Shown here: positions 1-56,382 of the stretch, piece by piece
How positions within the stretch are numbered: position 1 is the first letter of the stretch
Layout: every line of letters starts with the position of its first letter
From: a virus
Taxonomy: Duplodnaviria > Caudoviricetes
DNA length: 64,000 nt
Virus record (IMG/VR): IMGVR_UViG_3300007541_000020
Location: 1,076-65,075 of that record
Strand: one strand, 5' to 3'
Translations under genes and position numbers: made by a program
The notes under the pieces: generated by a model
Database searches by the model: none
Told to the model about the DNA's origin: nothing
What the model saw: the letters and a program-made list of their open reading frames with translations, nothing else

Positions 1-17
1 TAGTTTTTTCAAAGGGT

Positions 18-18641: not shown

Positions 18642-19231
18642 CCTATCAATTCGATTCCTCTATAAATGAATATGGGAATCTGGCTTCTGGAATATTTTTA
18701 TACGATTTTGATGAAGAATACTCAGTAATTAGGCCAGAGTATATATCTGGCTGGCTTGATAACAATATTGGCGAATTAAATGTATTAATTCACAAATGCT
18801 ACGAAGGTGGTAGTCCTGGATTAGGCAACGAAGAGCAAGCGATTTACAGGCAATTATTTTTAAAATCTTTTTATGGCAAACTAGCTAGAAAAACATTAAT
18901 GGGTGTTTCTGTTACTGAAACTATTCCAGTAGAAGGCAGTACATACAATCCAACAATGTCAGATTGGATAGAGCTAAGAGAAGGTGATAGCTACATAAAA
19001 AGACAAGTAACTACAGCAAGCCCTTCCACAAAGGTTTCTGCGTCTAAACAATATTCATCATATGCACAAGAGGCAGAACTAACTTTGAAAGATTTAATAT
19101 TCAAATATAATAATAATATTGCATTTCCAAGACAAGTTGTTCCTGGTTTCAGTTATGCAGAAGCTAGCGAAAAAAAACAAGATGTGGGATATCCTGGAGT
19201 GGGATATCCTGGAGTTGGGTATCCTTCTTAA
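18638..19231 (+). CDS. Putative head-tail adaptor / neck protein
   Basis: ATGA overlap with the previous gene; position after the capsid; WIELREGDSYIKR resembles the adaptor beta-hairpin. Confidence 0.5.
   Translation: MTYQFDSSINEYGNLASGIFLYDFDEEYSVIRPEYISGWLDNNIGELNVLIHKCYEGGSPGLGNEEQAIYRQLFLKSFYGKLARKTLMGVSVTETIPVEGSTYNPTMSDWIELREGDSYIKRQVTTASPSTKVSASKQYSSYAQEAELTLKDLIFKYNNNIAFPRQVVPGFSYAEASEKKQDVGYPGVGYPGVGYPS
19184..19228 (+). repeat. 15-bp tandem repeat x3 encoding (VGYPG)2-VGYPS
   Basis: gtgggatatcctgga / gtgggatatcctgga / gttgggtatccttct at the end of the 18638 ORF. Confidence 0.9.
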
Positions 19232-20229
19232 AGCCCTTGCATTTTTATTAAATCATCCATAGTTAAAGATCCACCTTTTTTTGCTGCAGCTTGATGCAGG
19301 GAAGGTTTCTTAATAGAAAGTTCTTCACTAGAAATGCCTAGGTCATTATAATCAGATTCACTTGCCCCAAAAACAGTTGATGCCCCTTCTTTTTGTAAGT
19401 TTTCTTTAGCTTTTTCTCTTGATTTAGATTCAGAACTATATGCTAGCAATTTTTCAGGATCTTTTCTAACATCTTCTGGTATATCTGGATGTTGGTCTAT
19501 AATATTTTTAAAAACTTTTTGATAGAGACATAAAATCAATTGATTGCTGGTTAGATCAATTAATGGTTTTCCGAATACATCTTTAGGGTTATCGCTTACA
19601 TACATATAAGGAATAAAAAAATCTTGAAGTATAATTGATTGTATATTCTTTTCAGAAAAAATATACACAAAAGAATTATTTATTTTGGTAAGATCTGAAA
19701 TTGCGCTTCTAGGGAGATCTTCAAATTCATCTTTTCTGAAAAATTTATGCGTCAATAAAGGATCTTTGTAGAGTATATTATATATAAATCTTTCTCCAGC
19801 AACTTTATTAGAATAAATTTCTGATGTTTCACCTATTAAGGCTTCGAGTATATCCTTTTTTTTATTTAAAAAATTTAATTCTTCATCAATTAAATTCTGT
19901 ATCTTTTCTTTTTCTGATTTGATTATTAACTCATTCTTTGTTTTACTTAAAGAATTTATATAATTTTCTTGACTTAATATAAAAGCATCATCTTTTTCAA
20001 GCCATTCTCCAGATTCAATTAAGGTTTTTTTTCTAGATTCTCGCGAGGGAATCCCTCGTTTTTGAGCATCAATATTTAGTTTATTTACGGTCTCTTCAAA
20101 ATATAAAAGGTCTCCGTCTTTTACATGTTTTATGAAAACATCTTTTTTTTTATAATTTACTATTGTATAACCTTGACATACGTCCCTGAAAATTTTCTTA
20201 AAGAAATTTTTGTCAGAATCATCATACAT
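19228..20229 (-). CDS. Hypothetical helical protein, possible tail assembly chaperone; paralogue of 20222-20983
   Basis: 333-aa ORF; shares the IK..DL...KRGI...SG...DDA pattern with its neighbour; stop codon overlaps the convergent gene at TTAA. Confidence 0.55.
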   Translation of the reverse strand: MYDDSDKNFFKKIFRDVCQGYTIVNYKKKDVFIKHVKDGDLLYFEETVNKLNIDAQKRGIPSRESRKKTLIESGEWLEKDDAFILSQENYINSLSKTKNELIIKSEKEKIQNLIDEELNFLNKKKDILEALIGETSEIYSNKVAGERFIYNILYKDPLLTHKFFRKDEFEDLPRSAISDLTKINNSFVYIFSEKNIQSIILQDFFIPYMYVSDNPKDVFGKPLIDLTSNQLILCLYQKVFKNIIDQHPDIPEDVRKDPEKLLAYSSESKSREKAKENLQKEGASTVFGASESDYNDLGISSEELSIKKPSLHQAAAKKGGSLTMDDLIKMQGL

Positions 20230-20983
20230 TTCCAGAATCTATATCTTCGCTAATCTTATCAAAATCTTCTCTGGAGACATTGGTACTGAAGTACCAAAAA
20301 CTTATAAGCGTTGCTATTTTATCTTTTACGAGATCGAATATTTCGTGACCGTTTTCGTCTAAATCATAATATTGATCGATTTTATCAACAGATTCAACTT
20401 CGTCAAAAAAAGGAATGATTTCATCTTGTTCTGATTCTTGATAAAAAGAAAGATGGACAAGATACCAAATTAGAACCTTGTTTTGTGCCTTTGTGTCTGC
20501 TGTATGATTAAAAAGAGATGAATAACTGGTTTCCATATCCACTATATCTCTCCTTAGGCTTGCCATCTCTCCAAGAAGGTTTTCAAGTTTTTTTTCATCT
20601 TGTTTGTTTTTTTTGGGCTGAGATGAGAGTCTGGAGTACTTATTTTGAATAGAGCCTAGTTCTGCGTAAGATTTAGTTAGGAGTTTTGCATCATCTTCGG
20701 ACAGTAATCCTCCTGAGTCGCTGTATTTTTTTGCTAACATAGCTTTTGTTAAAATGCCTCTTTTGATACACTTGCTCATTTCTATACTATATTCAATGTC
20801 AGCTTCTTCAAGATCTCTTCGACTGGGATCTTTTATGATTATCTTATAAGGAACTGGAGTTTTCACTACCTCTGTGACAGTGTATTCTTCCACTTTTCCA
20901 GTCTTTGGATTCTTTTTCTTTTTGACAATATCCTGTTCTATTTCTTTATCGATATCAACACTAAAACTATATAATTCTTTCAT
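20222..20983 (-). CDS. Hypothetical helical protein, possible tail assembly chaperone
   Basis: 253 aa, acidic and coiled-coil; 8-bp overlap with the downstream paralogue. Confidence 0.55.
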   Translation of the reverse strand: MKELYSFSVDIDKEIEQDIVKKKKNPKTGKVEEYTVTEVVKTPVPYKIIIKDPSRRDLEEADIEYSIEMSKCIKRGILTKAMLAKKYSDSGGLLSEDDAKLLTKSYAELGSIQNKYSRLSSQPKKNKQDEKKLENLLGEMASLRRDIVDMETSYSSLFNHTADTKAQNKVLIWYLVHLSFYQESEQDEIIPFFDEVESVDKIDQYYDLDENGHEIFDLVKDKIATLISFWYFSTNVSREDFDKISEDIDSGNV

Positions 20984-21007
20984 TGCTTATTATAATAATA
21001 TTTATTT

Positions 21008-21304
21008 TTATTTTTTAAAATCAAAAGTCACTGTGAATTTTTCTAAATCTTGATTTTGATTTCTCATGGAATCATTTCCTTTGTCCAAAACGGTTTTTCT
21101 TAAAAATTTCATTTTAGATTCGTCTAGATAATCTGCCTGATCTATAAAAGTTGAATATTTTTCAGGTAGATTTTTTTTTAATTTATCAAAATGAATATCA
21201 TGATCATTTTTTAAATTTTCCAGAATATTAAGAAAAGATTTAAATAAATCTTTCATATGCCTTTCATACCTTTCTTGGAGGAAAAATTTGTGAAAATCAC
21301 TCAT
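21008..21304 (-). CDS. Hypothetical protein
   Basis: 98-aa ORF with ATG and a sigma70-like promoter immediately upstream. Confidence 0.65.
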   Translation of the reverse strand: MSDFHKFFLQERYERHMKDLFKSFLNILENLKNDHDIHFDKLKKNLPEKYSTFIDQADYLDESKMKFLRKTVLDKGNDSMRNQNQDLEKFTVTFDFKK

Positions 21305-22983: not shown

Positions 22984-24762
22984 ATGGCTAGAAACAGAGT
23001 AATTTATCAAAGCGAAGCTTTATTCGTAAGTCCAGTATCGACTGGCGCAAATTTTCAATGTACTGCTCTATTATCAGGGATGGGACCAACAGGCGACAGC
23101 AAAGTTGCAAGCCAAAACGCTCCTTCTGGTTTATTTAAGGGAGCTTTCCATACGGGAAATCCAATTGGGTATTTAGGTTTTACCAATCCAATTGGATTGG
23201 GTCAAGATCCATTCGTACTTAAAAGCATGGATACTCCTGCAGAGAGGTTTCTTCACGAAGATATTATTAATTTGTCAGGAGTAGCCGTTACCGCAGCATC
23301 TGGAGAATTTGAAGTTTTCACGGGTCAACGTTTTGACACCCCTTCTTTTGCTATTGACTATACCAAGATAAATGAAAATCCAATAACAGTTTCTGCATTA
23401 CAGCAAAATGGCCCAGGAGGAATTTCTTTATATACAGATGCAGCTGCATGGAATGCGGGATTAGAGAAATATTACGAAGTGGATCCTGCTACAAATTTAC
23501 CTTTTATCGCGGATAAAAACACAGTACCAGTTGGGCTTTTATTGCAGCCATTTTATGGAGATTATGAAAATTTAGTTCAGCAAATTCATAGAGTTCAAAG
23601 CGCAAACTATAGCTTTACAATTAATCGTACAGATGTTAATGTATTTGGTCAGCTGGCTAGAATTGATAGCATCTCTCTTGAGCCACCCACAGTTAATCTT
23701 GATTTCACATATTATCCAACAGATGGGTTCAATGAAAGAAATTTAGGTTTATATGTGCAATCCCCTAGCGACAATGTAGGGTTAATGGGCGGCACTGACG
23801 TTGTCAATGCAGCAAAAGATTTAATGAAAACCGACAAAGCTGGTCAGAATTATTATATTTTAACCACTCCTGAAAATTCAGATGCATTTAATACAGCTTC
23901 TGCTAATGGAGATAGAAGTGTAATCGGTCTGGGTAATGGATATTTAACAGACTATACTTTTGAAGCTTCTGTGGGATCTATTCCTAGTGTATCTGCAACT
24001 GTAGAGCTTTATAATGCAAAATCAGATAATGGTACCATTAACATAAACACTCCAGCTGTAAATCTTACCGACGGTACACCAGTTGAGAATACTAAATTTA
24101 CTATCGCTCATCCTGAATCAGATCGAGGAGATAATCGTGGAATGGTTCCTTCAACAGGAAGTTTCCCAGAATCTCAAATTACTGCACTTCGACCAGGAGA
24201 TATTAAACTTGAAATACCTAATGAGCTTGGGATGTTTTCAACAATTGAGGGTGAGGACGGATTTAATATTCAAAGCTTTAGTATTTCTTTGCCTCTTAGT
24301 CGTACACCTATCGAAAGAATCGGATCAAGGTATGCATTCTCAAGAGCTGTAGATGTGCCAGTAACCGTATCAATGAGCGTTAATGCATTAATCGGAGAGC
24401 TTGGTACAGGGAATCTTGCAAAACTTATAGATGATTGTAATGAATACAATGTAAGGGTAAAAATTAAAGCTCAAGCTTTATGTGGAACCCCATATACCAG
24501 TGAAAATCGTACAGATGCTATGATATTCGATTTTAAGGGAGCAAGGCTTGATAGCGAATCCATTTCATCAGACATCGGAAGCAACAAAAGCGTTGATCTT
24601 TCTTGGAGTGCTCAATTAGGAGGACTTGAAGATTTGGATCATGGTGTATTTATATCTGGGTTAAATAATACTAGAATTCCAGAACCATCACCAATTCCTG
24701 GCAGACAGAACTTGAAAGAGTACATATCTAGGCCAGACGATGCAATTCTTGGAGACGAGTAA
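22984..24762 (+). CDS. Major tail tube protein
   Basis: 592 aa, beta-rich; two tube-like halves (NRTDVNVFGQ and SRTPIERIGS); followed by a terminator and the TMP gene. Confidence 0.75.
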   Translation: MARNRVIYQSEALFVSPVSTGANFQCTALLSGMGPTGDSKVASQNAPSGLFKGAFHTGNPIGYLGFTNPIGLGQDPFVLKSMDTPAERFLHEDIINLSGVAVTAASGEFEVFTGQRFDTPSFAIDYTKINENPITVSALQQNGPGGISLYTDAAAWNAGLEKYYEVDPATNLPFIADKNTVPVGLLLQPFYGDYENLVQQIHRVQSANYSFTINRTDVNVFGQLARIDSISLEPPTVNLDFTYYPTDGFNERNLGLYVQSPSDNVGLMGGTDVVNAAKDLMKTDKAGQNYYILTTPENSDAFNTASANGDRSVIGLGNGYLTDYTFEASVGSIPSVSATVELYNAKSDNGTININTPAVNLTDGTPVENTKFTIAHPESDRGDNRGMVPSTGSFPESQITALRPGDIKLEIPNELGMFSTIEGEDGFNIQSFSISLPLSRTPIERIGSRYAFSRAVDVPVTVSMSVNALIGELGTGNLAKLIDDCNEYNVRVKIKAQALCGTPYTSENRTDAMIFDFKGARLDSESISSDIGSNKSVDLSWSAQLGGLEDLDHGVFISGLNNTRIPEPSPIPGRQNLKEYISRPDDAILGDE

Positions 24763-24790: not shown

Positions 24791-24816
24791 AAACCCCCAT
24801 TTTTTGGGGGTTTTTT
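24791..24816 (+). terminator. Rho-independent terminator after the tail tube gene
   Basis: AAACCCCCA-TTTTT-TGGGGGTTT hairpin with a T-tract. Confidence 0.85.
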
Positions 24817-24852: not shown

Positions 24853-27800
24853 ATGCCAATAAAAGTCAATGTAGTTCAAAAAGGGTTAGAGGAGTCTATA
24901 CAAAGGGCTGCTAAAAACATTAACTCAAAAGGCTTGCATGTAAACATAAATGACAGGCAATTCACTAGACCTTTAGGAAAAATAACTGGCTCAGTAAGCG
25001 AGTTTAATAAATCCTTAGAAGCTTCTAATGCTCGTGTTTTGGCATTTGGAGCATCTGTTGGAATTATTCAAGGAGTTCAGACCGCATTTAAAGCATTGAT
25101 TTCCAGCGCTATAGAGGTAGAAAAAAAGTTGACAGAAATTAATGTTGTAATGGGATTAACCTCCAAACAACTAGAAAATTTTGGGTCAAAATTATTTGAT
25201 GTAGCAAGAAACACCGCTCAAAGTTTTTCGACTGTAGCCTCTGCTGCAACAGAATTAGCCAGACAGGGCCTTACAATGGAAGAGACCTTAAAGAGGACGA
25301 ATGATGCTTTAATATTAACAAGATTAACAGGTCTAGACGCAGCTTCCGCTGTAAGCGGATTAACGGCAGCTTTAAACACTTTCAATAAAGCAGGTCTTGA
25401 CTCAACTCAAATTTTAAGCAAAATGGCCGCAGTTGATGTTCAGTTTGCGGTTAGCACGGAAGATTTGATAGATGCCGTATCCAGAGCTGGAGCTGTTGCG
25501 AATGATGCTGGCGTAAGTTTTGATCAATTAATGGGAGCTGTAACTGCAGCTCAACAAATGACCGCAAGAGGCGGTAAGGTAATTGGAAATAGTTTTAAGA
25601 CTATATTCACTAGAGTCCAAAGGTCAAGCACTATAACGAGACTAGAAGAGTTGGGTATAGCAGTAAGAGATATGATGGGAAATACTCTTCCTGCAATAAG
25701 CGTATTGGAAAATTTAGCAAAAACATATGATACTTTAGCAGATACCACAAAAGCCGCTGTTGCAGAACAAGTAGGTGGAGTATTCCAAATTAATATTTTA
25801 AAAGCAGCAATAAAAGATTTGTCAGAAGAAAATAGTATTTTGGCTAGAGCCACACAGTTGTCCTCTCAGGCAACAGATGAAGCTTATAAGAAAAATGAAT
25901 TATTAAATCGATCATTAGATGCATTAGTAAATCAGACAGGTGCAAGTATAAAAGAACTGGCGGCTACAATTGGTGAAATTGGATTTTCTGACAGCATGAA
26001 GGATTATCTTTCTTTTATTAATGATCAAATTAAGGGGTTATCTAATTTATTAAGCGAAGAAAAAGGAGAAAAAGATGGAACAAATTATTTTAAAGGTTTT
26101 GTTTCTGGCTTAGGAAAGGTCATAATGGGACCTGGGTTGGCTGCGGGATTGGTTGTATTAACAAGCCTTGCTGCCAAAACGTTTGCATTCCTAGGGGGAA
26201 GTGTTAAAGAGCTACTAGGAATGGTTTCCGCAAGTCAAAAACAAAAACAAATACAGGAGTCAATCGTTGCTGTATTAGCAGAAAATTCCTCACTTCAAGC
26301 GAAATTGTTATCTCAGGAAGGAAATAGAGCTGCACAAGAAAAGACAATATTGGGAATACTACAAGCTCAAGCAAGAGAACAAGCAAGAATATCTTCATTG
26401 GCTTCTAGGGTAGCTCCAGTAATCGCTCAAAGAGGCTATGGCCCGAATCTACAGAGAACTAGGGCAGATGGACACATTCCAAATTATGTAAGCAAAGAAG
26501 AGGAGTTGAGAGAAAGACGGGGTGCAATTAAATCTGGTTACACCCCAGGAAAAATAAAATCCATGATACTTCCTGGAGAGGGTAGGGTGGTTTATAACTC
26601 TTCTGAAAATGTTAAGAAATTCGCAAATTTAAATCAGCCTGCAATTATGCCGCCCGAGTCAAGTGTGGCTGGCAGAAAATACAAGTCTAAATTCAAAAAG
26701 AAACATGGTTTTGATCCATACAAAAATGATGGTTTGATTCCAAATTATTATCAAGCTGCAGGGGCAAGCGCTAACTTCGGTAATTTTACGGCAACAAAAG
26801 CTTTTGGTTATGGTTGGCATGGCCCAGGGGGAGGGGGAGGCGGAAAGTCCGCAGCTAGCGGAAGCCAGCAAAGAGCCCGCATAAGAATCCCTGGGGGCGG
26901 CGGAGGAAGTGGAACTAGAGGCCTGTCATTTTCTTCAAGTGAAGGGTTTGTTCCAAATTTTATGAAGTTAAACGCTTCAAGTTTGAAGTCAATAAAAAAT
27001 TTACAAAGCAAAACTGTTTCGCCCAAAATTAATTCTAGTAAATTTGATGAAATCATAACCGAAAAGGTTCAATTGCTATCATTATTATCTGACAACAAAT
27101 TTAAGTCATTAGAATATTTAACTTCTGGAAATAAATTAAAAACATTTCATAGCGCAAGAAATAATGTGCATAAGTATAAGAAAGGAGTTTCTGCCCCTAA
27201 AGATTATGCTAGTTGGAAAGATTTAGATGAAAAGACGGGCTCTAAAGTTTTATGGGTTGGTTCTGCAGGAGAGAAAGAGGCTGGATATAGAAGATTTACA
27301 TTAGAAAAAATATTAAGCATTATGTCTGGCGGGAAAAAGTATGGTGTAAATTTATCTTCATTTAAGAATAAATTCCAAGGCATGATTCCGAACTTCGCTT
27401 TGTCTTCAACCCCGAAAGATCAAGGTGAATTTTTAAAGGGATTAAAAGAATCAAACCCTAGATTTTATAACCCTGCGGCAATAGCAAAGTATGAAACTTA
27501 TAAAAATCCATCAAAACTAAATGATTTATTAAATAGCCCCAAGAATACTGTAGATGCTGTTAAGTATTTGGATAATAATGCATTGCGAAGAATGAAACAG
27601 TATATGCAGAAAAATTCCATGTTGGGAGATGCGGACTGGAAGGTTGTATCTAGGATTAATGGTCAAGAAGTATTAGGTGCAAATATCGATAAAGAACTAA
27701 GAACTGCATCTCCAAGAGAAATATTCAATTATTTAACTGGACAAACAGATAGAATTCAGGGGAATATACCCAATGCATTTTTAAGATTGAGAGATCATTC

Positions 27801-30800
27801 AGAAAGATCGGCAGTTGCAGAAGATATCATAGGTAGAAGTGGCATCTCTAAGATAGTAAAAGAAGAGATAGACATTATAAAAAGGAATAAAGGTAGACAG
27901 CAGTCTGCATTAAAAGAGGCAAATCTTTCAGAAAAACAAATCAGCGTTAGGGAGGAAAATCAGAAGAAATTTCAGTCCGCATGGCTCAAGGAAAGACAGA
28001 GACAAATAGAAAGTTCCATGATGGAATCTATGTCTTCATTAAATAAATCTTCTTCGTTTGATCCTGTAAAAAATATAAATGCAAGTTCATTCCGAAAAAG
28101 CTGGAATGATATGGAATACAATAGGTACTTAGAAAAAATCGGCAAAGGACAATCTGTTTCAAAAGCATTTAGGGAGGCTCAATACATGTATGATCCAGAC
28201 CTTTTTAAAAATACTGGTTTAGTAAAAAGAAGATTGAGAAATAAAGGTCATATTCCAAATTTTGCAAAAATAGCATCTACTGGAGCTCAAAAAATATTAG
28301 ATAAGAATCCTGAGTTTTATGGAGCAGCAAATGATGCAATAAAAAGAGAATCATCCTTCGGATTAACTCCTAAATTAGTTTCAGCCCCATCTTTAAGGGG
28401 ATCTCAGAATCCAGGCTTGGCTGTAGTAAATCAAGAACAAGAAGGAGGGTCTTTGGGGAGGGCAAGAAAATTACATAAAGGATTAAATCCAAAACAAAAA
28501 ACTTCAGCCAAAAAAGTTCCAAATTTTGCTTTAACAGCTGGACAAACTTCTGCTTTATATCATCAGGCAATGTATGATGAGGTTCCAAAAAGAGGCATGG
28601 ATGCAATCGAGCAAAGACAGGCTGCAGTAAGAAGCAATTTAGCTCCATTTTCACAAATAGATCCTATTGTAAATAAACTCAACGATTCTTATGTGAAGCA
28701 TAATCAATTAATTATGCAATCAAATTTAAGGGAAAGAATCGCATTGGGGCTATTGGAAAAAGAAAATGTATCAAGACAAAATTTTGCAAAACAATTTTTA
28801 AGAAAAGATGCGATGGCCGCAATAGCTGGGGGAGGAGGATCTCAGGCTGCATTAGCTAAATCTTATATGAAATATGACGGCGCTGAAATGATGACCAGAA
28901 TGTTTACTGAAAAAGCTATGGCTGATAAATTGGGAGATAAGAAAACATCTAATGCTATCAACAGTTTAATAAAAAATGTAGAAAAACAAACAAATACACT
29001 ATCAAACATTCCAAGACTGCAAGCTCAGGCATTAGAGTCTTCAGCGAGACAGATTAGGGGAGAAAACACTCTGAGTTCTAGATTTACTGGAACACAAGGT
29101 TTTAATCCCAGGGTAGCAGAACAATATTACGGAAAAAAATTTTTAGAGAGTAAAGGAATACAATCTTCAAGTAGGCAAGAGACTGCTGCAATTGTTTCAA
29201 GATTTGGCAGGGAAACTAGAGATGAATTCAAAAAATTTATGCAAGAAAAGGGTGTTATGTCATCTAATGCACAGCTTGCAAGAGGCGGTTTATTGAAAGG
29301 AGAATTCGCTGGATTAATGAGGAGCCAAAGTTCTACATTTCTGCCAAGACTTTCCCAATTAGAGGGTGCTGTAAAAAACGGCGACACTGCTACTGCAAGA
29401 AACTTAAGACGTCAATTAAATCAAGAAGCTTTAAGACAAGGCACAAGCGCAACTGCTATTGCAAAATTACAAGACACAATAAAGAATGTAGAGAGAGAAG
29501 CTAAACCATCAAAAAGAGAAGGTTATAGAGATAGGGGATTGTCCATGCAAAGAGGCGGTCAAAATTTCTCTGGAGGCTTTTATGCTGGATTGGGTGGAGG
29601 CAGGGACTTGAGTCAAACTTTAGGTGGGAAAACAGGAAATTTAGCGGGAAGAGTTGCTGGCTCAGTAGGCGGAGGATTAAAAAATTATTTTTCTAGTGCT
29701 AATAGATTGATGGCTGGAAATACTGGTCTTGCATTATCATTTGCATTACCAATGATGTCTGGAATGGTTCAAAGTCAAAAGGCAAGAGAAGAGAGGGGGG
29801 TATATAGAGACGGAAATTATGAGATAGAAGAAGGTAGAGGGAGAGATGTCGCGGCAAGCACATTAATGGGCGCTGGAATGGGTGCGATGTTCGGATTACC
29901 AGGGCTTCTAGTTGGGGGATTAGCTGGGTTTGCGAAAGCAATGTCACAGACAACTCTTACTATTCAAGAGCAAATCAAAATGAGAGAAAAAGAAATCGCC
30001 GTAATTTCTCAAAATGCTCAAGCTTTATCTTCCGTGCAAAACTTATCGACCGCGAGGGCAGAAGCATTCAGGACAGGAAGATCTGATGATGTAAATAAAT
30101 TAGATTCTCAGATCAATCAAGTATTATCTGGAATTACAGAAAAATCTATAATAGATAGAGCTGTTGCGTCAGTTGGAGACCAAGATGCATTATCTAAATT
30201 ACAGAAAGAAATCGGAGATCAACAAGCCACTCAAAATAATATACAAAATTTTGCTATGGCGATCAATAGCAAAAACTCAAAAAATGCGGGACTTTCTCTT
30301 GCGTCTATTATTTCTCAAAACATAGCTAACGAATTAACTACTATTGAAGATATGAATTCTGCTATCGCAGACATTAAAAGGCAATATGCAGATGCACAAC
30401 AAAGCGGGAATTATTTAGAGGGAGCTGAGTTGAGAAATCTTCGAAGAATGTCCAATAGGGAGGGAATAAGCAACCGTGGATTAGGGATGGCTGGTTTTGC
30501 AGGATTGGGAACTTTTGCAGCTGGAGCTGCTTTATCATTTACTGGAGCTGGAGCGTCAATAGGAATCCCCATGATGTTAGCAGCTTCAGGGGCAGCGGCT
30601 GGAGCAGGATATTTCGGACAACAAGAAGTTGATAAATATTTTGCAGATAGAAAATTAGAACAAGCGGGAAGTCAAGGTTTTGATCAAACTTTATGGATGA
30701 ATAGCCTTGTCAAGAAAGGAGTTTTGAGTCAAGCAACCATGGAACCTTTATTGGCTGCATTAAACAAAGGAGAGACTAATGTATCTGATATTGCCAAGTA

Positions 30801-33800
30801 TGCAGAAGAGGCCGTAAGTCAAATGCAAATGATAAGGGATAATTCAAATGCTTTTGGAAATAATATTTTTGATTTAAATCAAAAATTTAAAAATGCTATA
30901 AATTCAATGGTTACTGATCTAGAAGTTTCAAGAATCAATCAATCAGAAAATTTAAATTCATTAAAATCCATTACGGATATATCATCAAGTTACATGCAGC
31001 CAAATAAAGCAGTACAATACCAAGGTAATCAAATGAGAAAAATGTTTGATCTTGATGTTTCGTATAGAAGGCAAAACCAAGCAAGAGAAAATGATGTATC
31101 TCTTTTAAGAGAATTGCAACAAAACATGAAGCAATTAAATTTAATGCCTACTCAGCAACAAGCTATAATAGATTTAATTCAAAAAGAAGGAACTGGAGCT
31201 GTTGGTACAATGGCAGACCAGAGACTGCTGCAGGGTAAATATGATATATCATTAACTGAAAGCAAACTATCTAATATATTTTCAAGATTAGGTTATAAAG
31301 GCTCTATTGAAAATGTAGGTTCAGCGGGCCGAATGGAAGTAACGAAAGATTCTCAGCTTGGAGGATTTCTTGGAACACAAAATATCCAAGAACAACAAAA
31401 GATAATCGACGATTTACAAAAAAATGCAGCTCAGTATCTTCAACAAGGATCTTATACTGCTACATTCTCAAGAGACCTGGATAACAATTCAAGAAAGCTT
31501 GTGAAAGAAATGCTTCAAAGACAAGATACCAGAAATACTATTTTAGAGGCTCAGATAAATTCAGATAGAAGAAGCTTGGCAATTTCTATAAAAAGAAATG
31601 AAATAGAGAATTCTATTAGACAGAAAACAGAAATGATGTTAGCTTCTTTTCAAACAGAGACGATGAAGGAAGAAAATAGATTAACAACCAAAAGACTTAA
31701 GTCTGCAGGAAAAATCTCAGACCTTCAGTTTCAACAGTCTGATATGTTCCGAGGTTTTAATAATAATGATCAAGAGAATCAAAGACAAACAGAGATAAGG
31801 AAAAAAATATTTGATCAAGAATTTGCCATAAGGAAGGCTGAGATCGAATCCAGAATGAGAACTGAAGCTTCTAGGTTATTATCTGACCAGAATTTGATAT
31901 ATGCATTAAATAATTTGGGAGACAGGATTGATAGTAAATTAAATAAAGAAATTGGCCCAATTGAGCCCAGGGTTCCATCAAATGAACCAACAAAATTAAA
32001 CGAGGGGAGAAAGGCTGCGGAAAAATCTTTAATAATAACAAATCAAGCAAAGGTAGAGGAAGCTAGTTCCAGAGTGGAATCAAAGATAAAGGAGAAAAAC
32101 AAAGCTAAAGCAGAAATAAATAATATAGGAAATCAGATAGATTATCAAAGGTCGATGGAAAAACATTCTAGGAATATTGAAAATATTTTCAAGAATGCAC
32201 CTTTTCCAGAGAAGCCTAAAAGAGGTAATACATTGTATGAAGAGTGGAATCCTTTTGTGGATGGCCCAACAGAAAGATATCTAAAAGCCTCAAAGAAAGT
32301 TCAAAAAGAAACATCAAGACAGGCTCTAAATTACATAGAAGAGAATGAGCTGAGCGGCGCTTTGGGACTCAGTAATACTCATAATTGGAAAGCCAATTTC
32401 ATGAATTGGTCCATAGCTGATCAAGAAAAGGTATTTAGAAACCATGCGGATTCTTACAAGGCGAGAGGTGATTCTATATCTAGAGACAAACTCGTCCCGC
32501 AACAAAATAAATTAAATGAAATTGAAAAAGAAATTAGCAATGCTAGGAATGAAATAAAAAATCTCTCTAACCAGACACAGCAGAGAGTAATAAAACCTGC
32601 TCCTACTCAATCACCATCTGTTCCTAATGTTAATATTGGGCCAAATAATGGACCAAAGACAGGAGAGCAAGAAGATCCATTTGAATATTATGCAAGTCAA
32701 ATTGGAATAAAAAAGAGCGAGCTCTATATGAATCAACTTTCAGAAGCCCAGGGATTAAATGCCCAATTAGATGTAATAGAAAGAGCCATACAAGAAGCAA
32801 AACAGAGTGGCGGAGATATGAGTATGATAAATCAGCTTTTTATGCAATTAGCTGAGAGCTACAAAGCAGCTGGGCTTGAGCTAAGGGAGTTTTCTCAGAA
32901 TTTTAATATTCAAGAAGCTCAAAAGGCAACTGAGAATTTTGTTTCGTCATTGAAAACTTTAAGCGGAGCCCAATCTCAAATTTCTGGCATTAGAAATTTG
33001 ACTAATTTAACAAGCGATGATATTGCAGCGCAATCAAGCATATCTAGTATTTCAGCATTAAAAGATCAAATTCAAAAAGAAAAAGAGTATGAAATATTAA
33101 AGAATGATCCCTCCGCAACTTCATTACAAAAAGCAGATGCATTTGCTGCCGCAAACGCACAATCAATTGGCACCAAACAGCAAAGAGATGAACTTATAGG
33201 TTATTTAAAACAAGAAGAAGGGTTAAGAAGTCAACTTTACAATGCTGAACGTATCGCGAGAACTTCTGAAAATCCTTTTGAGATTTCTCAAGCACAAGAT
33301 GAGGTAAGAAGTTTAAAAAATCAATTGGCTCAATTGGATGATTCTGTTAGAATATTAGGATCTCAACTCGAAAGGACAACACCTAGAGACAGGGGTGTTT
33401 TATCAGAAATAGGCTCTGGAATGTCAAGTGGATTACAACAGGGTTTTGCACAATTAGAAGCTGATTCGGAAACGATATATCAAAGACTGGGGCAACAATT
33501 GCCCGTGCAGTTAAGAGATGGTCTAACCGATGCAATGCAGGCTGCAATAAATGGATCTCAAAAATTTGGGGATGCTATGAAGCAGGTTGGAATTCAGTTG
33601 TTGCAGAACATACAGAGAGCCTTTTTGCAAAGTGCGTCAAATAGAATTACGGGATTAATTGGAAGCGCATTTAATCTAAAATTAAATAGCGGAGGATATG
33701 TTCCAGGAGGCAGTGGGGTAAGAGATGATGTGCCTGCCTTATTGACAGGAGGAGAGTATGTCATGAAAAAAAGCTCTGTAGAAAAATATGGAGTTAATTT

Positions 33801-34767
33801 CATGGAGTCATTAAACAAAGGAAATATTGAAGGGTTTTCTCAAGGAGGCGGAGTTAATTTAAAAATAGGTGCACCTAGGGCCGCAGAAAGAGAATCTTAT
33901 CAAGACTCAAATCAAGATGGATCTGTCACTAGGTACAGGGTTAAAAAAGAAAAAATTGGTATTAACAAGCAATTAACTGCTTATGCAGTAGCAAATGATA
34001 GATCTATACAGAAGTATTTACAAGAAGAAGAAAGCCAGTTTTATGAAGATGTTGAAACAAAGAGACAAGAAAAACATAGATCAAACATGGCTGGATGGAG
34101 AAAAAGACAAGAAAAAGATCAATTATTAAATACAGTTTTAACGATAGCAGGCACAGCTTTATTAAATAAAGGTCTAGATTGGGCAAAGAATAAATACGAT
34201 AATTCTTCTTTTGCTCAAAAAAGATTTGACAAGAAAGTAAACAAGGGATTAGAAGAAAAAGGTTATTACAGGCACAAAGGTGCACCATTGTCTCAAAAAT
34301 TTGAGAGTCCGAGCGACATGATGAGAGTTGAAAAAATGTATGACAGAATATATCAAGATTCTGGACCTCAAGGAGTTTTGCAACAAGCAAGGAAGGATAA
34401 TTTAGATGTAACTGCTGATCAATTTAGATACAAAATGAGAAGGTACAACCAAGGAGGAAAAGTACCATCTGTTTTGACTGGAGGAGAATTTGTTGTAAAT
34501 AAAGATGCTGTTAAAAACAACGGATCCGCTTTTATGAGCAGCGTCAATAGTGGAACTTTGAATACGAGATCAAATCAAGCGACATCCGACCAATCTACTA
34601 ATATAACACATGGAGATGTTAATGTAACAATTAATGTAAGTGGAGGTGGCGCTGCAACATCTTCTGGAGGAAACATGAATCCTTCTGATTTCTCAGCAAA
34701 GGTAAAAAGTGCTGTAATGGAAGTAATTGCAAAAGAAAGAAGAGTTGGGGGATCAATGAGAGGATGA
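24853..34767 (+). CDS. Tail tape measure protein (3304 aa, TP901-like N-terminal core)
   Basis: N-terminal AATELARQG...TARGGKVIGNSFKTIFTRV is TP901-type; Gly/Ala hydrophobic segments and coiled coils; C-terminal GGYVPGGSGVRDDVPALLTGGEYV is a TMP motif. Confidence 0.9.
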   Translation: MPIKVNVVQKGLEESIQRAAKNINSKGLHVNINDRQFTRPLGKITGSVSEFNKSLEASNARVLAFGASVGIIQGVQTAFKALISSAIEVEKKLTEINVVMGLTSKQLENFGSKLFDVARNTAQSFSTVASAATELARQGLTMEETLKRTNDALILTRLTGLDAASAVSGLTAALNTFNKAGLDSTQILSKMAAVDVQFAVSTEDLIDAVSRAGAVANDAGVSFDQLMGAVTAAQQMTARGGKVIGNSFKTIFTRVQRSSTITRLEELGIAVRDMMGNTLPAISVLENLAKTYDTLADTTKAAVAEQVGGVFQINILKAAIKDLSEENSILARATQLSSQATDEAYKKNELLNRSLDALVNQTGASIKELAATIGEIGFSDSMKDYLSFINDQIKGLSNLLSEEKGEKDGTNYFKGFVSGLGKVIMGPGLAAGLVVLTSLAAKTFAFLGGSVKELLGMVSASQKQKQIQESIVAVLAENSSLQAKLLSQEGNRAAQEKTILGILQAQAREQARISSLASRVAPVIAQRGYGPNLQRTRADGHIPNYVSKEEELRERRGAIKSGYTPGKIKSMILPGEGRVVYNSSENVKKFANLNQPAIMPPESSVAGRKYKSKFKKKHGFDPYKNDGLIPNYYQAAGASANFGNFTATKAFGYGWHGPGGGGGGKSAASGSQQRARIRIPGGGGGSGTRGLSFSSSEGFVPNFMKLNASSLKSIKNLQSKTVSPKINSSKFDEIITEKVQLLSLLSDNKFKSLEYLTSGNKLKTFHSARNNVHKYKKGVSAPKDYASWKDLDEKTGSKVLWVGSAGEKEAGYRRFTLEKILSIMSGGKKYGVNLSSFKNKFQGMIPNFALSSTPKDQGEFLKGLKESNPRFYNPAAIAKYETYKNPSKLNDLLNSPKNTVDAVKYLDNNALRRMKQYMQKNSMLGDADWKVVSRINGQEVLGANIDKELRTASPREIFNYLTGQTDRIQGNIPNAFLRLRDHSERSAVAEDIIGRSGISKIVKEEIDIIKRNKGRQQSALKEANLSEKQISVREENQKKFQSAWLKERQRQIESSMMESMSSLNKSSSFDPVKNINASSFRKSWNDMEYNRYLEKIGKGQSVSKAFREAQYMYDPDLFKNTGLVKRRLRNKGHIPNFAKIASTGAQKILDKNPEFYGAANDAIKRESSFGLTPKLVSAPSLRGSQNPGLAVVNQEQEGGSLGRARKLHKGLNPKQKTSAKKVPNFALTAGQTSALYHQAMYDEVPKRGMDAIEQRQAAVRSNLAPFSQIDPIVNKLNDSYVKHNQLIMQSNLRERIALGLLEKENVSRQNFAKQFLRKDAMAAIAGGGGSQAALAKSYMKYDGAEMMTRMFTEKAMADKLGDKKTSNAINSLIKNVEKQTNTLSNIPRLQAQALESSARQIRGENTLSSRFTGTQGFNPRVAEQYYGKKFLESKGIQSSSRQETAAIVSRFGRETRDEFKKFMQEKGVMSSNAQLARGGLLKGEFAGLMRSQSSTFLPRLSQLEGAVKNGDTATARNLRRQLNQEALRQGTSATAIAKLQDTIKNVEREAKPSKREGYRDRGLSMQRGGQNFSGGFYAGLGGGRDLSQTLGGKTGNLAGRVAGSVGGGLKNYFSSANRLMAGNTGLALSFALPMMSGMVQSQKAREERGVYRDGNYEIEEGRGRDVAASTLMGAGMGAMFGLPGLLVGGLAGFAKAMSQTTLTIQEQIKMREKEIAVISQNAQALSSVQNLSTARAEAFRTGRSDDVNKLDSQINQVLSGITEKSIIDRAVASVGDQDALSKLQKEIGDQQATQNNIQNFAMAINSKNSKNAGLSLASIISQNIANELTTIEDMNSAIADIKRQYADAQQSGNYLEGAELRNLRRMSNREGISNRGLGMAGFAGLGTFAAGAALSFTGAGASIGIPMMLAASGAAAGAGYFGQQEVDKYFADRKLEQAGSQGFDQTLWMNSLVKKGVLSQATMEPLLAALNKGETNVSDIAKYAEEAVSQMQMIRDNSNAFGNNIFDLNQKFKNAINSMVTDLEVSRINQSENLNSLKSITDISSSYMQPNKAVQYQGNQMRKMFDLDVSYRRQNQARENDVSLLRELQQNMKQLNLMPTQQQAIIDLIQKEGTGAVGTMADQRLLQGKYDISLTESKLSNIFSRLGYKGSIENVGSAGRMEVTKDSQLGGFLGTQNIQEQQKIIDDLQKNAAQYLQQGSYTATFSRDLDNNSRKLVKEMLQRQDTRNTILEAQINSDRRSLAISIKRNEIENSIRQKTEMMLASFQTETMKEENRLTTKRLKSAGKISDLQFQQSDMFRGFNNNDQENQRQTEIRKKIFDQEFAIRKAEIESRMRTEASRLLSDQNLIYALNNLGDRIDSKLNKEIGPIEPRVPSNEPTKLNEGRKAAEKSLIITNQAKVEEASSRVESKIKEKNKAKAEINNIGNQIDYQRSMEKHSRNIENIFKNAPFPEKPKRGNTLYEEWNPFVDGPTERYLKASKKVQKETSRQALNYIEENELSGALGLSNTHNWKANFMNWSIADQEKVFRNHADSYKARGDSISRDKLVPQQNKLNEIEKEISNARNEIKNLSNQTQQRVIKPAPTQSPSVPNVNIGPNNGPKTGEQEDPFEYYASQIGIKKSELYMNQLSEAQGLNAQLDVIERAIQEAKQSGGDMSMINQLFMQLAESYKAAGLELREFSQNFNIQEAQKATENFVSSLKTLSGAQSQISGIRNLTNLTSDDIAAQSSISSISALKDQIQKEKEYEILKNDPSATSLQKADAFAAANAQSIGTKQQRDELIGYLKQEEGLRSQLYNAERIARTSENPFEISQAQDEVRSLKNQLAQLDDSVRILGSQLERTTPRDRGVLSEIGSGMSSGLQQGFAQLEADSETIYQRLGQQLPVQLRDGLTDAMQAAINGSQKFGDAMKQVGIQLLQNIQRAFLQSASNRITGLIGSAFNLKLNSGGYVPGGSGVRDDVPALLTGGEYVMKKSSVEKYGVNFMESLNKGNIEGFSQGGGVNLKIGAPRAAERESYQDSNQDGSVTRYRVKKEKIGINKQLTAYAVANDRSIQKYLQEEESQFYEDVETKRQEKHRSNMAGWRKRQEKDQLLNTVLTIAGTALLNKGLDWAKNKYDNSSFAQKRFDKKVNKGLEEKGYYRHKGAPLSQKFESPSDMMRVEKMYDRIYQDSGPQGVLQQARKDNLDVTADQFRYKMRRYNQGGKVPSVLTGGEFVVNKDAVKNNGSAFMSSVNSGTLNTRSNQATSDQSTNITHGDVNVTINVSGGGAATSSGGNMNPSDFSAKVKSAVMEVIAKERRVGGSMRG

Positions 34768-35591
34768 AGGGTTTTGTAAAAAACAGAAATCAAGAGTTTA
34801 CAATTAATGGAGTTAATCTTTCAGGAGTATCTTCTGTTAATGCGGGCTATTCAATACCACATGAAATTACTAGCTATATAGGATATACTGGAGCTCCAGG
34901 AATATTCCAAAATTCTCCTGGTATAGGAAATTTATCTTTTGCAAGACCATTGATTTCATCCGATGAAAAAATTACGGAACTAATAGCTCGAAAAGAAGGT
35001 TTTAGCGGAGGGCTTAGTTACAATAATAAATCAATTAATTTTGAAAGCGGATATATAAGCTCTTATGAATGTACATTTTCTATAGATTCAATACCTCAAA
35101 CAAATGTATCAATAGTATCTTATGGTAATTTCGGTCCCTCTGTAGAGATAGAAGAGATTGAAGAAAATGAACAAAAAATTTTTATACCATTAAATAGCGG
35201 TATAATATTAGAATGTGATGGAAGAGATACTAACCGTGTAAGTTCTTTTAGTTTTTCAATAAATATATCCACACAGCCATTGTATTCTGTTGGGAGTATA
35301 TATCCAGTTGATATTTATTTAGAAAAACCTATATACCAAACTTTTTCTGTAAGCCTAGAAATAGAAGATTATGAAACAAAGTCAATTTATGATTATATAA
35401 CAAAAGGTTTTGATAAAAGAGATTTATCCGTAACAATACACGACAAGGGGGGTCAAGATAAAATCAAATACACCTTTAAAGATGCGAGGCTGGTCGAGGA
35501 GAATTTTGCCACAGATAGTGAGGACAATACAAGTGTGAACATAAAGTACATAGCGCCGACAATGAATCAACCTATTATAGAATATATATGA
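34764..35591 (+). CDS. Tail-tube-fold baseplate/distal tail protein (tube paralogue 1)
   Basis: GYISSYECTFSIDSIP and QPLYSVGS match tail tube motifs GYLTDYTFEASVGSIP and TPIERIGS. Confidence 0.6.
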   Translation: MKGFVKNRNQEFTINGVNLSGVSSVNAGYSIPHEITSYIGYTGAPGIFQNSPGIGNLSFARPLISSDEKITELIARKEGFSGGLSYNNKSINFESGYISSYECTFSIDSIPQTNVSIVSYGNFGPSVEIEEIEENEQKIFIPLNSGIILECDGRDTNRVSSFSFSINISTQPLYSVGSIYPVDIYLEKPIYQTFSVSLEIEDYETKSIYDYITKGFDKRDLSVTIHDKGGQDKIKYTFKDARLVEENFATDSEDNTSVNIKYIAPTMNQPIIEYI

Positions 35592-36412
35592 GCTACATAG
35601 GATACGAAAAATGCATTGTGGAAATTAATGGCGAAAAGGTTTTTGCTATTAATGCAAGTATATCTGCAGCTTCAAATTCTCAAGAAAACATAACATATGG
35701 AGGAGAAATGAGGGGGAGAGTGCCTAGATTTTTTAATCAACCTGGAGACGAAGGGAATACATTAGTTAGAGATTATGCCGCAGAGGCTCCATTAGAGTCT
35801 AGTTTGAGTTTAAGATATTACATAACGGGAGAAGAGGATCCAATTGCATCGCTAACAGGAGAGGGATCGTGCCAAGGAAAATTTGGAGGAATAAGCTTTT
35901 CTGGTGCATATTTAACTAGCTATGCAATGCGTATGGAGCCCTATAAACCAATAATCCACTCTGCAGATTTTAGAATTTTTAGTGGATTTAAAAATGGATT
36001 AAAAGAAGAATCTTTTGGAGATCAGATGGATCAAATTGATTTATCAAATGGATCTTATTCAGAACTTGCCAACTTTAATCAACAAAATATAGGAATGAAA
36101 TTTATTAATTCAGTTGATTATTATGTATCTTGCGAAAGACTACCTAGCTACGTTGTCGGAGAGGAGTTTCCAGAATATGTAATACAAGGAAAAGTATTAA
36201 AAAGTTTAAGGGTTGAAGGCGAGAACATAGGAGATGTAATAACATATACTGGAAAAAAAATTACAAAACTAGAAATTTCTCCAAAAACAATCGGGAAAGA
36301 GGCTCGAGGTAAAGATTTGTTTTGTTCTGGAGTATTAGTTTATCAAAATATAAATGTGTCCAAAAATGATTTCCTTGCGGGAGGGATAGAGGTAATAGAA
36401 AGTGTAAAATGA
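35588..36412 (+). CDS. Tail-tube-fold baseplate/distal tail protein (tube paralogue 2)
   Basis: AYLTSYAMRMEP and RLPSYVVG motifs; ATGA overlaps on both sides. Confidence 0.55.
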   Translation: MSYIGYEKCIVEINGEKVFAINASISAASNSQENITYGGEMRGRVPRFFNQPGDEGNTLVRDYAAEAPLESSLSLRYYITGEEDPIASLTGEGSCQGKFGGISFSGAYLTSYAMRMEPYKPIIHSADFRIFSGFKNGLKEESFGDQMDQIDLSNGSYSELANFNQQNIGMKFINSVDYYVSCERLPSYVVGEEFPEYVIQGKVLKSLRVEGENIGDVITYTGKKITKLEISPKTIGKEARGKDLFCSGVLVYQNINVSKNDFLAGGIEVIESVK

Positions 36413-37403: not shown

Positions 37404-38300
37404 ATGAGTTTTATAAAAACAGAAAAGATTAATCAAGAAATTTTTGATATAAATAAAAATACTATTGTAGAATTTATAAAAATTCATAATATTGTAAATT
37501 TAGATGAAATTTACATGCATGCAGGAGTAAATAAAATTTACTCATCTTTATTTTTTGACAATCAAGAATATGCATATATACCTTTTGAGTTGACTGGAGT
37601 AGAAAGTCAGGGTGATGGGGGTATATCTAGACCCAACTTAAAGATAGTAAATTTTTCTGGATTTTTGTCTAAATATTTAAGGGATAAAGACGATCTTCTC
37701 GGTGCAAAAGTCACAAGAATAAGGACATATTTAAAGTTTTTAGATAAAGAAAATTTCTTGGGTTACGATGAAGATCCTGAAAATTGGATAAGTCAAGGAA
37801 TAAATCCTGATCCAATGTCTAAATTTAGAGATGATGATTGGGTTATTTCCCAAAAAATTGAAGAAAATAAGTTTTTTATTTCATTTGAGCTGACGAATGC
37901 TTTAGATTTGGAAAATATAACATTGCCAAACAGGAAAATAATTAACAATTATTGTTATTGGAAATATAGGGGGAAAGGCTGTAGGTATGATGGTGATCCA
38001 ATAGCCGACAGTAACAATGTTAAATTCAAAGACAAAATTAATTTTAGAGGGCAATGGAAATTAAATGAGAACTATATAACAAACGATTCTGTATATCTGG
38101 TCGTAAAAGAAGGTAATACCACAAGGAAAGTATTTTATGTATGTGCTCAGAACAATTCTGGCTCAATATCAACCAAACCTTCTTTAAATTCAAATTTATG
38201 GGTTAAAGATGATTGCAACAAGAAGCTTGGTGGATGCAAGTTAAGATATAAAGACGGACCGTTGCCATTTGGAGGATTCCCCTCAAGTAGATTATATTAA
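37404..38300 (+). CDS. Minor tail tip protein L (lambda gpL-like, Fe-S binding)
   Basis: GAKVTRIRTYLKFLD, CYWKYRGKGC, CNKKLGGCKLRY and LPFGGFP are gpL hallmarks. Confidence 0.9.
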   Translation: MSFIKTEKINQEIFDINKNTIVEFIKIHNIVNLDEIYMHAGVNKIYSSLFFDNQEYAYIPFELTGVESQGDGGISRPNLKIVNFSGFLSKYLRDKDDLLGAKVTRIRTYLKFLDKENFLGYDEDPENWISQGINPDPMSKFRDDDWVISQKIEENKFFISFELTNALDLENITLPNRKIINNYCYWKYRGKGCRYDGDPIADSNNVKFKDKINFRGQWKLNENYITNDSVYLVVKEGNTTRKVFYVCAQNNSGSISTKPSLNSNLWVKDDCNKKLGGCKLRYKDGPLPFGGFPSSRLY

Positions 38301-38301
38301 A

Positions 38302-53726: not shown

Positions 53727-53744
53727 TTGAATTGAGTGTTATTT

Positions 53745-55367: not shown

Positions 55368-55382
55368 AATCAATTAATATGG

Positions 55383-56342: not shown

Positions 56343-56382
56343 GTTTTTTAAAAGTTATATTTAAGTTTTTATTGCTTAATAT

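Follow-up and report, generated by a model that had tools for sequence, protein, structure and literature searches.

Tape measure proteins (TMPs) of phages are usually seen as rulers and channel formers that carry an occasional cell-wall hydrolase insert. The TMP described here contains, in its N-terminal third, a short peptide that recurs between segments unlike each other, which raises the question of what a repeated joint is doing in a protein of this kind. Its gene occupies positions 24853–34767 on the plus strand of a 64,000-nucleotide stretch of viral DNA (hereafter the window), which makes up nearly all of the linear IMG/VR virus record IMGVR_UViG_3300007541_000020 (65,075 bases, estimated to be 55% complete). 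A first-pass annotation made from the letters of the window had proposed that this region is a processed cargo polyprotein, in which a recognition site for a protease or chaperone separates swappable effectors (anti-defence or host takeover) delivered at infection. We find that the peptide lies exactly at the edges of the modules that near-identical phages have gained, lost or replaced. With moderate confidence, we favour a reading in which the TMP holds a motif-punctuated array of passenger domains and the uniform joint is a recognition element for one common partner.

The 3304-amino acid product of the open reading frame (ORF), P0001, was identified from the ORF listing, its translation and profile matches. 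It passes Pfam PF10145 (PhageMin_Tail) with 92.9 bits against a cut-off of 33.2 over amino acids 118–309, and eight PHROG TMP families match its N-terminal ~490 amino acids with E values down to 2.3e-57. These matches assign the ORF to the TP901-type TMPs, in this case of an uncultured virus. The PF10145 region belongs to a conserved N-terminal domain (amino acids 1–539; 24853–26469, plus strand), which also contains a helix-prone stretch and a hydrophobic segment at about amino acids 416–451, with hydropathy peaks at 425–442. This N-domain is ~24–27% identical to that of YomI of the SPbeta group and other TP901-type TMPs, and many of its columns are invariant in an alignment of 22 TMPs (A1). 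Compared with the closest relative, a single contig present in our set as both L002 and L003, it shows 1.7% amino-acid versus 22.8% synonymous codon differences. The array of interest sits between this very conserved domain and the membrane-active and ruler part of the protein.

In the frame of the TMP, the recurring hexapeptide reads GHIPNY at amino acid 540 (26470–26487), GLIPNY at 627 (26731–26748), GFVPNF at 698 (26944–26961), GMIPNF at 843 (27379–27396), GNIPNA at 970 (27760–27777), GHIPNF at 1132 (28246–28263) and KKVPNF at 1220 (28510–28527), all on the plus strand. All seven had been listed, and correctly placed, by the first-pass annotation; six of them are genuine junctions, whereas GNIPNA is spurious. 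When the TMP sequence was subjected to 20,000 composition-preserving shuffles, the strict pattern G.[IV]PN[FY], which has five matches in the protein, occurred on average 0.00325 times per shuffle, and a looser pattern with seven matches occurred 0.084 times, with a maximum of three in any shuffle. The last hexapeptide, KKVPNF, is judged from its counterparts to be a genuine variant of the junction motif: the closest relative (L003) reads EKVPNY at this site, and the final motif of relatives with long TMPs often lacks the Gly (SAVPNY, TSVPNY, SGVPNY, AAVPNY), others retaining it. GNIPNA lies inside a module and is unchanged in L003; other relatives have GTIGGNF, GNVPGSF, GNVGGNF, GNTPGAF or GSVPGHF here, and the sequence around it is conserved. 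The six reading frames of the window contain no further copy of the strict motif.

How widespread is the array, and does it ever come apart? A word-indexed search with amino acids 500–1300 returned 208 proteins at E ≤ 0.001; the analysis covered the 120 best of them. All 120 are TMPs of 1856–4845 amino acids and all carry 3–14 copies of the motif. Across 174 distinct TMPs, the number of motifs ranges from 2 to 13 with a mode of four, and the first motif lies at a median position of amino acid 541. Relatives are encoded on 302 IMG/VR stretches, 80 of which were examined together with the close relative, giving 81 related loci. In these loci a single ORF encodes the TMP across the whole array without a break, with 2–12 motifs (12 of the TMPs are cut by the end of the locus), and the strict motif has no occurrence outside the TMP ORF. 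Neither a natural split at a motif nor modules encoded as separate genes at motif boundaries were found in any of the 81, and a search for shorter proteins with the array gave four matches, all of them fragments or frameshifted copies. TMPs with N-domains only 39–47% identical to that of the window still carry the array.

The extended consensus of the joint over 508 distinct instances is [A]-[A/S/N]-x-G-[FHYL]-[IV]-P-N-[FY]-[A], with small residues before the motif Gly, Ala after the aromatic residue and a narrow choice at the other positions; the invariance of G, P and N in this set follows from the construction of the search pattern. A mutual-information test did not distinguish whether a motif variant goes with the module before it or with the one after it. 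Such a conserved site might also be a signal in the DNA, namely a recombination hotspot or a programmed −1 frameshift site (A_AAT_TTT), and not a feature of the protein. Within the window, five of the seven sites (six motifs and the pseudo-motif) have TTCCAAATT in common, the sequence CCA AAT TTT contains the slippery heptamer, and the sole DNA repeats between 26300 and 28700 are tracts of 22–25 nucleotides around the motifs with 68–82% identity. CCA AAT is used at five of the seven sites, and the motif at 27379–27396 is the only one in the window with CCG AAC TTC; the proposal that the motif is conserved at the level of the protein with differing codons is accordingly weak when judged on the window, and it holds over the 413 motifs of the related loci. 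Their codon use equals that of the gene background (AAT for 72% of Asn versus 75%; TTT for 76% of Phe versus 78%) and includes all four Pro codons. No more than 34 of the 413 contain the slippery heptamer, and a Tyr codon, which breaks the slippery site, ends 148 of them and 42% of the 508 distinct motifs. Because codon use in the motif matches the background, selection acts on the protein and not on the DNA; the frameshift or recombination signal was rejected on these grounds and is hardly conceivable.

In the window, the N-domain is followed by modules B, u, D, O-like and A and then by the rest of the TMP, with a motif at each joint. Since GNIPNA is not a junction and the two segments on either side of it match a single module, the true inter-motif lengths are 81, 65, 139, 283 and 82 amino acids. 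The module in question, O-like (27397–28245, plus strand, 283 amino acids), spans what the first-pass annotation had taken for separate fourth and fifth segments, and both of its halves match one 282-amino acid module of P0002, P0004, P0005 and P0006 that is undivided in these relatives. It differs from its L003 counterpart at 14.1% of amino acids and 22.3% of synonymous positions, and nothing significant was found for it in Pfam, PHROGs or the PDB. A ubiquitin-like reading of the related O/P/H families was dropped, as the polyubiquitin match (E 0.041) is a sum over four repeats that contribute 2.5–3.8 bits each.

The flanking modules are shared by nearly the entire family. Module B (26488–26730, plus strand, 81 amino acids, family B) is the universal first module, has 114 BLASTP matches and shows 4.9% amino-acid and 28.4% synonymous differences from L003. 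Module A (28264–28509, plus strand, 82 amino acids, family A), the universal last module, is 60–73% identical in relatives with long TMPs and differs from L003 by 3.7% and 17.1%, respectively. For module D (26962–27378, plus strand, 139 amino acids, family D) the corresponding values are 6.5% and 20.1%. These comparisons indicate purifying selection on B, D, O and A, and the constrained modules display conserved Gly/Pro turns and aromatic positions (alignment A5 and the L003 comparison). Module u (26749–26943, plus strand, 65 amino acids, 29% Gly) matches the closest relative and none of the 119 other listed TMPs. As it is Gly-rich and changes at the synonymous rate (24.6% amino-acid and 24.6% synonymous differences from L003), it is probably a flexible linker.

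The expectation that the segments would lack the Ala-rich helical character of a TMP was borne out for some modules and not for others. Ala makes up 4.3–6.4% of B, D and O compared with 12.8–14.2% of the N-domain and the hydrophobic region; in u and A, however, it reaches 12–14%, and the long C-terminal coil of the TMP has just 7.1% itself. The segments were also said not to resemble each other, and here the first-pass annotation was right: no two modules of the window match in pairwise BLASTP at E ≤ 1e-5, and an hhalign comparison of 19 module families related only C/E/F and only H/O/P among themselves.

To follow the modules through the family, the 120 TMPs were cut at their motifs into 510 modules, which were then clustered. 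Family B is present in 113 of the 120 TMPs and always comes first, and family A has 119 members in 118 TMPs, 114 of them last in the array. Between the two lie D, G, H/O/P, I, J, K, L, M, N and others in long TMPs, and C/E/F in short ones. The order of the inner modules varies (e.g., H-D, D-H, D-O-G and G-H-D-K), and the 30 members of family D occupy array positions 1–7 in different TMPs.

The edges of this exchange coincide with the motif. When members of family G with different neighbours are aligned by BLAST, 56 of 85 alignments begin no more than ~5 amino acids from the upstream motif; on the other side, 61 of 82 end 0–4 amino acids past the downstream one, whereas with the same neighbours all alignments run on (20 of 20 on the left and 23 of 23 on the right). 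Likewise, at the right edge of family D, 257 of 399 pairs with different neighbours stop at the motif and 33 of 33 pairs with the same neighbour continue through it. Individual events can be read from near-identical proteins. P0017 and P0018 are 93–99% identical throughout save for one module, K in one where the other has G, and P0009 and P0010 are distinguished by a clean 109-amino acid insertion of K. Arrays of near-identical phages differ in length by 41–110 amino acids with no compensating change elsewhere in the TMP. Where two TMPs have N-domains that are at least 95% identical, their architectures still differ in 99 of 182 pairs, and many of these differences are C/E/F replacements. On a quick maximum-likelihood tree of the N-domains of 30 long TMPs, the presence of module G requires nine changes, at least six of which are forced by well-supported branches; this is no lower than for shuffled labels (mean 10.3, with 135 of 500 shuffles as low). 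Thus, motif number (2–13) and inter-motif content vary, the N-terminal 540 amino acids and modules B and A are conserved, and near-identical TMPs differ by the replacement or insertion of single modules at motifs. The swappable cassette that had been proposed is therefore well supported.

Whether the modules are also domains in their own right is partly supported by comparisons of their sequences. A search of 1.84 billion representatives gave no more than 28 homologues of module D at E ≤ 0.001, and 22 of them are TMPs of at least 2000 amino acids. Its core, however, aligns over the whole length of a free-standing 98-amino acid protein family (the P0130 cluster; hhalign 98.6%, E 1.2e-15), which identifies D as an autonomous domain. 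This small family has five members on contigs of up to 34.7 kb; its genomic context was sought in viral and metagenome contigs and was not found. Module G, which is absent from the window and present in P0002, P0018 and others, appears GNAT-like: PF00583 and PF14542 match all eight of the eight members compared at E ≤ 0.1, the best with 24.0 bits against a GNAT cut-off of 20.7, although the match spans only ~30 residues around the acetyl-CoA-binding motif. The LRG[KR]GYG signature of G occurs in 22 of 209 distinct long TMPs, and a near-length search with G for split or free-standing forms gave two fragment-like matches. The claim that the segments are independent modules is thus carried by D and by the likeness of G to GNAT proteins, the latter over a short stretch.

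Further modules of relatives offer leads of varying quality. C/E/F, the large middle module of short (~2200-amino acid) TMPs (e.g., L036:11888-12703) that the window lacks, has invariant E, D and (D/E)xK-like columns in an alignment of 22 sequences (A4). Its sole PDB match is the restriction endonuclease BsaWI (E 0.37), and no Pfam family is consistent across the 22 members; a PD-(D/E)xK nuclease-like passenger domain is a possible reading and serves as a lead. P0129, a 2270-amino acid TMP on a 182,773-base pair NCBI contig, has a module with a protein-kinase-like pattern (Gly-rich loop, A-x-K, D-L-x3-N) and a PDB match to the N-lobe of STK25 at E ~0.8–0.9, which makes a kinase-like module only a lead. 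The same protein has joints without Pro (GYVNY, GYINF, GYINV), in which the motif Asn is retained, and one joint without Asn and the aromatic residue (GHIPTS). The profile of module K (A7) gives weak matches (E 0.003–0.07) to many copies of one clostridial neurotoxin receptor-binding-domain sequence, which are likely to be compositional (Asn/Lys/Tyr-rich).

The model that we favour accounts for the uniform joint as follows. The modules would stay part of the TMP during tail assembly, and the invariant joint would act as a short linear recognition element into which any domain can be plugged without disturbing that assembly. The uniformity of the joint would make the slots interchangeable. Candidates for the common partner of the joint are a tail assembly factor or chaperone, the lumen of the tube or, possibly, a processing activity. 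The modules would travel in the tail and, together with the TMP, reach the envelope or the cytoplasm of the cell before the DNA does. That they reach the host in this manner we infer from the behaviour of TMPs, which in the account given in PMC12617516 leave the tail first and form or line a channel across the envelope; that the modules act on the host, and which partner reads the motif, are likewise proposals.

Several results weigh against the model. (i) Delivery into the host is deduced solely from what TMPs do in general. (ii) None of the window modules belongs to a known family in Pfam, PHROGs or PDB sequences, searched both as single sequences and as profiles, and module D had no usable match in the ESM Atlas. 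(iii) The likeness of G to acetyltransferases is confined to the short stretch described above, and its six PDB profile matches, all acetyltransferases or GNAT-related, have E values of 0.3–1.2. (iv) A hydrophobic-periodicity proxy makes D alpha/beta-like, similar to a GNAT control, and O more helical, and the proxy is a crude one. (v) All variable module families are basic, with +4 to +13 net charges per 100 amino acids, as spacers that fill the lumen or contact DNA might be. (vi) The span of the array tends to grow with the length of the remaining TMP (r = 0.63), as scaling with tail length would predict; clade structure could also cause this correlation.

The last two points are those expected of plain ruler spacers that add length or fill an electronegative tube lumen and whose swaps are neutral, the motif being helix-stop/helix-start punctuation (Gly C-cap, Pro, Asn N-cap). 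In the window, B, u, D, O-like and A carry net charges of +9, +5, +15, +17 and +7, and all 120 arrays are net positive, with a median of +4.8 per 100 amino acids compared with +1.7 for the N-domain and +1.4 for the rest of the protein. That every variable family is basic points to a shared physical role rather than to diverse enzymology. Motif number, too, follows total TMP length (r = 0.86), and the small residues before the motif Gly and the Ala after the aromatic residue would fit helix caps. Helix caps are normally degenerate, however, and not invariant, while B, D and A, with their conserved turns and aromatic positions, evolve under strong purifying selection, D has a free-standing homologue and G is GNAT-like. 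Moreover, near-identical phages tolerate the array changes of 41–110 amino acids noted above, and the rest of the TMP does not compensate for them. We therefore consider plain spacers very unlikely.

Rapid exchange of modules next to N-domains that are 95–100% identical is typical of host-interaction determinants, and it fits a second alternative as well as it fits the favoured reading. The variable domains might engage periplasmic or inner-membrane proteins of the host during channel formation and be swapped to change the entry route or to escape superinfection exclusion and TMP-sensing defences, with the motif as a neutral linker. TMPs contact inner-membrane and defence proteins of the host during DNA injection, and TMP regions decide ManYZ dependence and escape from the TMP-binding SNIPE nuclease, as reported in PMC13190303. 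It also suits this alternative that the modules always stay fused to the TMP. A neutral linker, on the other hand, would not be expected to keep its G, P and N over the 508 distinct instances. A GNAT-like domain is not an obvious membrane-docking part, and a hydropathy scan detected no hydrophobic segments within the modules. Taken together, an interface of this type is possible but doubtful.

The proposal of a processed polyprotein places a cleavage site in the motif, to be cut by a JAB peptidase or by Asn-driven self-cleavage between the Asn and the aromatic residue, so that the modules would be released as separate effectors after tail assembly or on ejection. A short conserved site is indeed present at every unit boundary, including both ends of the array, as in a processed polyprotein; the motif is exclusive to the TMP, and the modules can be swapped, do not resemble each other and include enzyme-like or autonomous ones. 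In the self-cleavage of tetravirus coat proteins, the bond that is cut is Asn-Phe. A candidate enzyme is encoded 3.5 kb downstream of the TMP: a gpK-like protein of 143 amino acids with a JAB/MPN metallopeptidase domain (38269–38700, plus strand; PHROG 30 minor tail protein, E 3.5e-15), whose HxHx7Sx2D pattern is intact and whose Pfam Prok-JAB score, 24.9 bits, is just below the cut-off of 25. Lambda gpK has an NlpC/P60 domain; a Pfam scan found none in the 143-amino acid protein. The precedent for TMP processing comes from lambda, where gpH gives gpH* and gpHC, and from T5 pb2, both of which are cleaved in the virion, the catalyst and the site not being known as far as the account in PMC12617516 goes. 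The tail genes of the window are similarly lambda-like, and its TMP might be cut after assembly as well; yet lambda TMP is cut once, near its C-terminus and in a Gly-rich region (PMC12617516, in the same account), whereas here there would be six candidate sites in the N-terminal third.

Other observations are at odds with cleavage. The gpK-like gene is the sole protease-like gene found near the TMP, but JAB proteins of this type are generic to lambda-like tails, and a homologue was found in only 37 of 79 related loci, 68 of which have at least 4 kb of downstream sequence. No protease dedicated to the motif was found in this record, which is an estimated 55% of the genome and in which the other conserved neighbours of the TMP belong to no known family. 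JAB enzymes usually cut after Gly-Gly, and yet Gly precedes the motif Gly in only 20% of the 508 instances and in none of those of the window. If the first and last motifs were cut, the conserved N-domain would be separated from the ruler. The 81 loci hold no modules as separate genes at motif boundaries, nor do the four shorter proteins with the array represent processed or independent forms, and the G-Y-[IV]-N-[FY]-like joints of P0129 do without the Pro. We regard a processed polyprotein as unlikely. A narrower version, in which the array is cut at the P-N-[FY] joints by Asn-driven self-cleavage or the tail JAB peptidase and phage-specific small basic effectors are released ahead of the DNA, is distinctly less probable still; the effector candidates would then be the acetyltransferase-, nuclease- and kinase-like modules together with D, O and similar ones. 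On that version, the uniform joint would let effectors be traded as cassettes between phages that compete with host defences, and the array would be a tail-borne counterpart of the effector cassettes of polymorphic toxins and type VI secretion systems and of the proteins packaged in phage heads. Both halves of the original proposal, processing and effector function, are plausible, and neither has direct support: no dedicated protease and no natural splits were found, the modules of the window match no known family, and the variable module families are all basic.

The favoured reading, a motif-punctuated array of passenger domains, has partial precedents. Functional passenger modules inside siphophage TMPs are known from mycobacteriophages (TM4 gp17 motif 3 and the Rpf-like motif 1; Piuri & Hatfull 2006, PMC1796659), where, by the description given there, they are dispensable for assembly, occur in some relatives only and are thought to act at infection. 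Those motifs, as described in that source, are single peptidoglycan-hydrolase-related inserts without a shared boundary motif, in contrast to the array of up to 12 mostly unrelated modules joined by the same hexapeptide reported here. Pfam and PHROG searches of the whole TMP and its modules found no peptidoglycan-hydrolase family (TM4 motif 3, Rpf, LT or M23 types). TMPs of the TP901-1 and SPbeta YomI type have an N-domain homologous to that of the window TMP (the PF10145 match given above, and ~26% identity to YomI of the SPbeta group over amino acids 15–385), and YomI-type TMPs also carry enzymatic domains, among them a transglycosylase according to record annotations. In 50,697 GenBank phage records there is no match to the array or to modules B, A and D at E ≤ 1e-5, or even at E ≤ 1, and at the DNA level no GenBank phage record resembles the TMP gene. 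Searches of bacterial genome collections gave 14 matches, all of them from metagenome bins or draft assemblies of uncultured organisms whose taxon labels disagree with each other; no cultured isolate is among them. On these two results the clade is uncultured, and we take it to be a large group of siphophages with lambda-like tail tips.

Viral polyproteins and polyubiquitin likewise hold several units in one chain with a repeated short site between them. They are defined by cleavage, whereas the likeness of the present array to them lies in units separated by such a site. The shuffling of protein fragments described by Smug et al. (2023, PMC10684548) is the same process, sub-gene exchange in host-facing virion proteins. 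That study, in its treatment of TMPs, saw a mosaic signal but confirmed no genuine recent case; the family analysed here, by contrast, offers clean recent swaps with a defined junction motif. Embedded domains in TMPs are already known; for a motif-delimited array of swappable domains in TMPs, our literature searches found no description.

Beyond the array, the TMP contains two Gly-rich hydrophobic, membrane-like segments (29860–30585, plus strand; ~amino acids 1670–1697 and 1876–1911 by hydropathy scan), whose Gly-rich hydrophobic columns are conserved in alignment A1. Near its C-terminus are two GG-x-VP...LTGGE[YF]V elements of ~50 amino acids each (33655–34587, plus strand; amino acids 2935–3000 and 3190–3245). 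By hhalign the one is related to the other (99.4%); across the family they hardly vary, and they probably dock in the tail tip. Modules B and A had been likened to these elements by eye, a resemblance ruled out by hhalign (probability ≤1%).

The TMP gene is followed by two plus-strand ORFs of no known family (34764–36412, ~275 amino acids each), which lie before the lambda-like tail-tip genes. The first of them has a weak Hcp/TssD-like match (21.7 bits versus a cut-off of 25.8), which suggests that the pair may be extra tube-like proteins; it is conserved in 59 of 79 related loci. The tail-tip set comprises an M-like protein (PF05939, below cut-off), L (PF05100, 134.9 bits), the K-like JAB protein, I (PHROG 32) and a J-like fibre of 2805 amino acids (PHROG 31, E 1.5e-111). 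Upstream of the TMP, a conserved ORF of 592 amino acids (22984–24762), for which Pfam, PHROGs and the PDB gave nothing, may encode the major tail protein; between it and the TMP start lies a strong terminator-like hairpin (24791–24813, plus strand) with a 9-base pair stem, five G-C pairs and a T-run. No G/GT-type chaperone pair is evident near this ORF and the TMP. Just upstream of the TMP cluster, amid plus-strand structural genes, lie three minus-strand ORFs of 333, 253 and 98 amino acids (19228–21304). None has a Pfam match above cut-off; of 79 related loci, 74, 72 and 57, respectively, conserve them. A giant plus-strand ORF of at least 4221 amino acids (3–12668) runs off the start of the window and matches no Pfam family at E ≤ 0.01; together with the TMP and the J-like fibre it takes up roughly half of the window. 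The plus-strand structural module is followed by a block of minus-strand ORFs (51329–57923), where G+C falls to 28–29% and the GC skew is reversed. The window contains no tRNA genes and no Rfam families.

For this clade, which spans at least 302 IMG/VR loci and 208 clustered proteins, the finding means that the TMP has a standardised system of motif-delimited slots. It provides clean, datable sub-gene mosaicism in TMPs, of the kind that the systematic study cited above (PMC10684548), within its coverage of these proteins, could not confirm, and a short invariant peptide whose role in cleavage, docking or chaperone binding is directly testable. Should the domains turn out to be effectors that are released, proteins would have a route into bacteria through the tail lumen as well as through the capsid. 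The modules make up a catalogue of small domains, most of them without a known family, that phages evidently need at entry.

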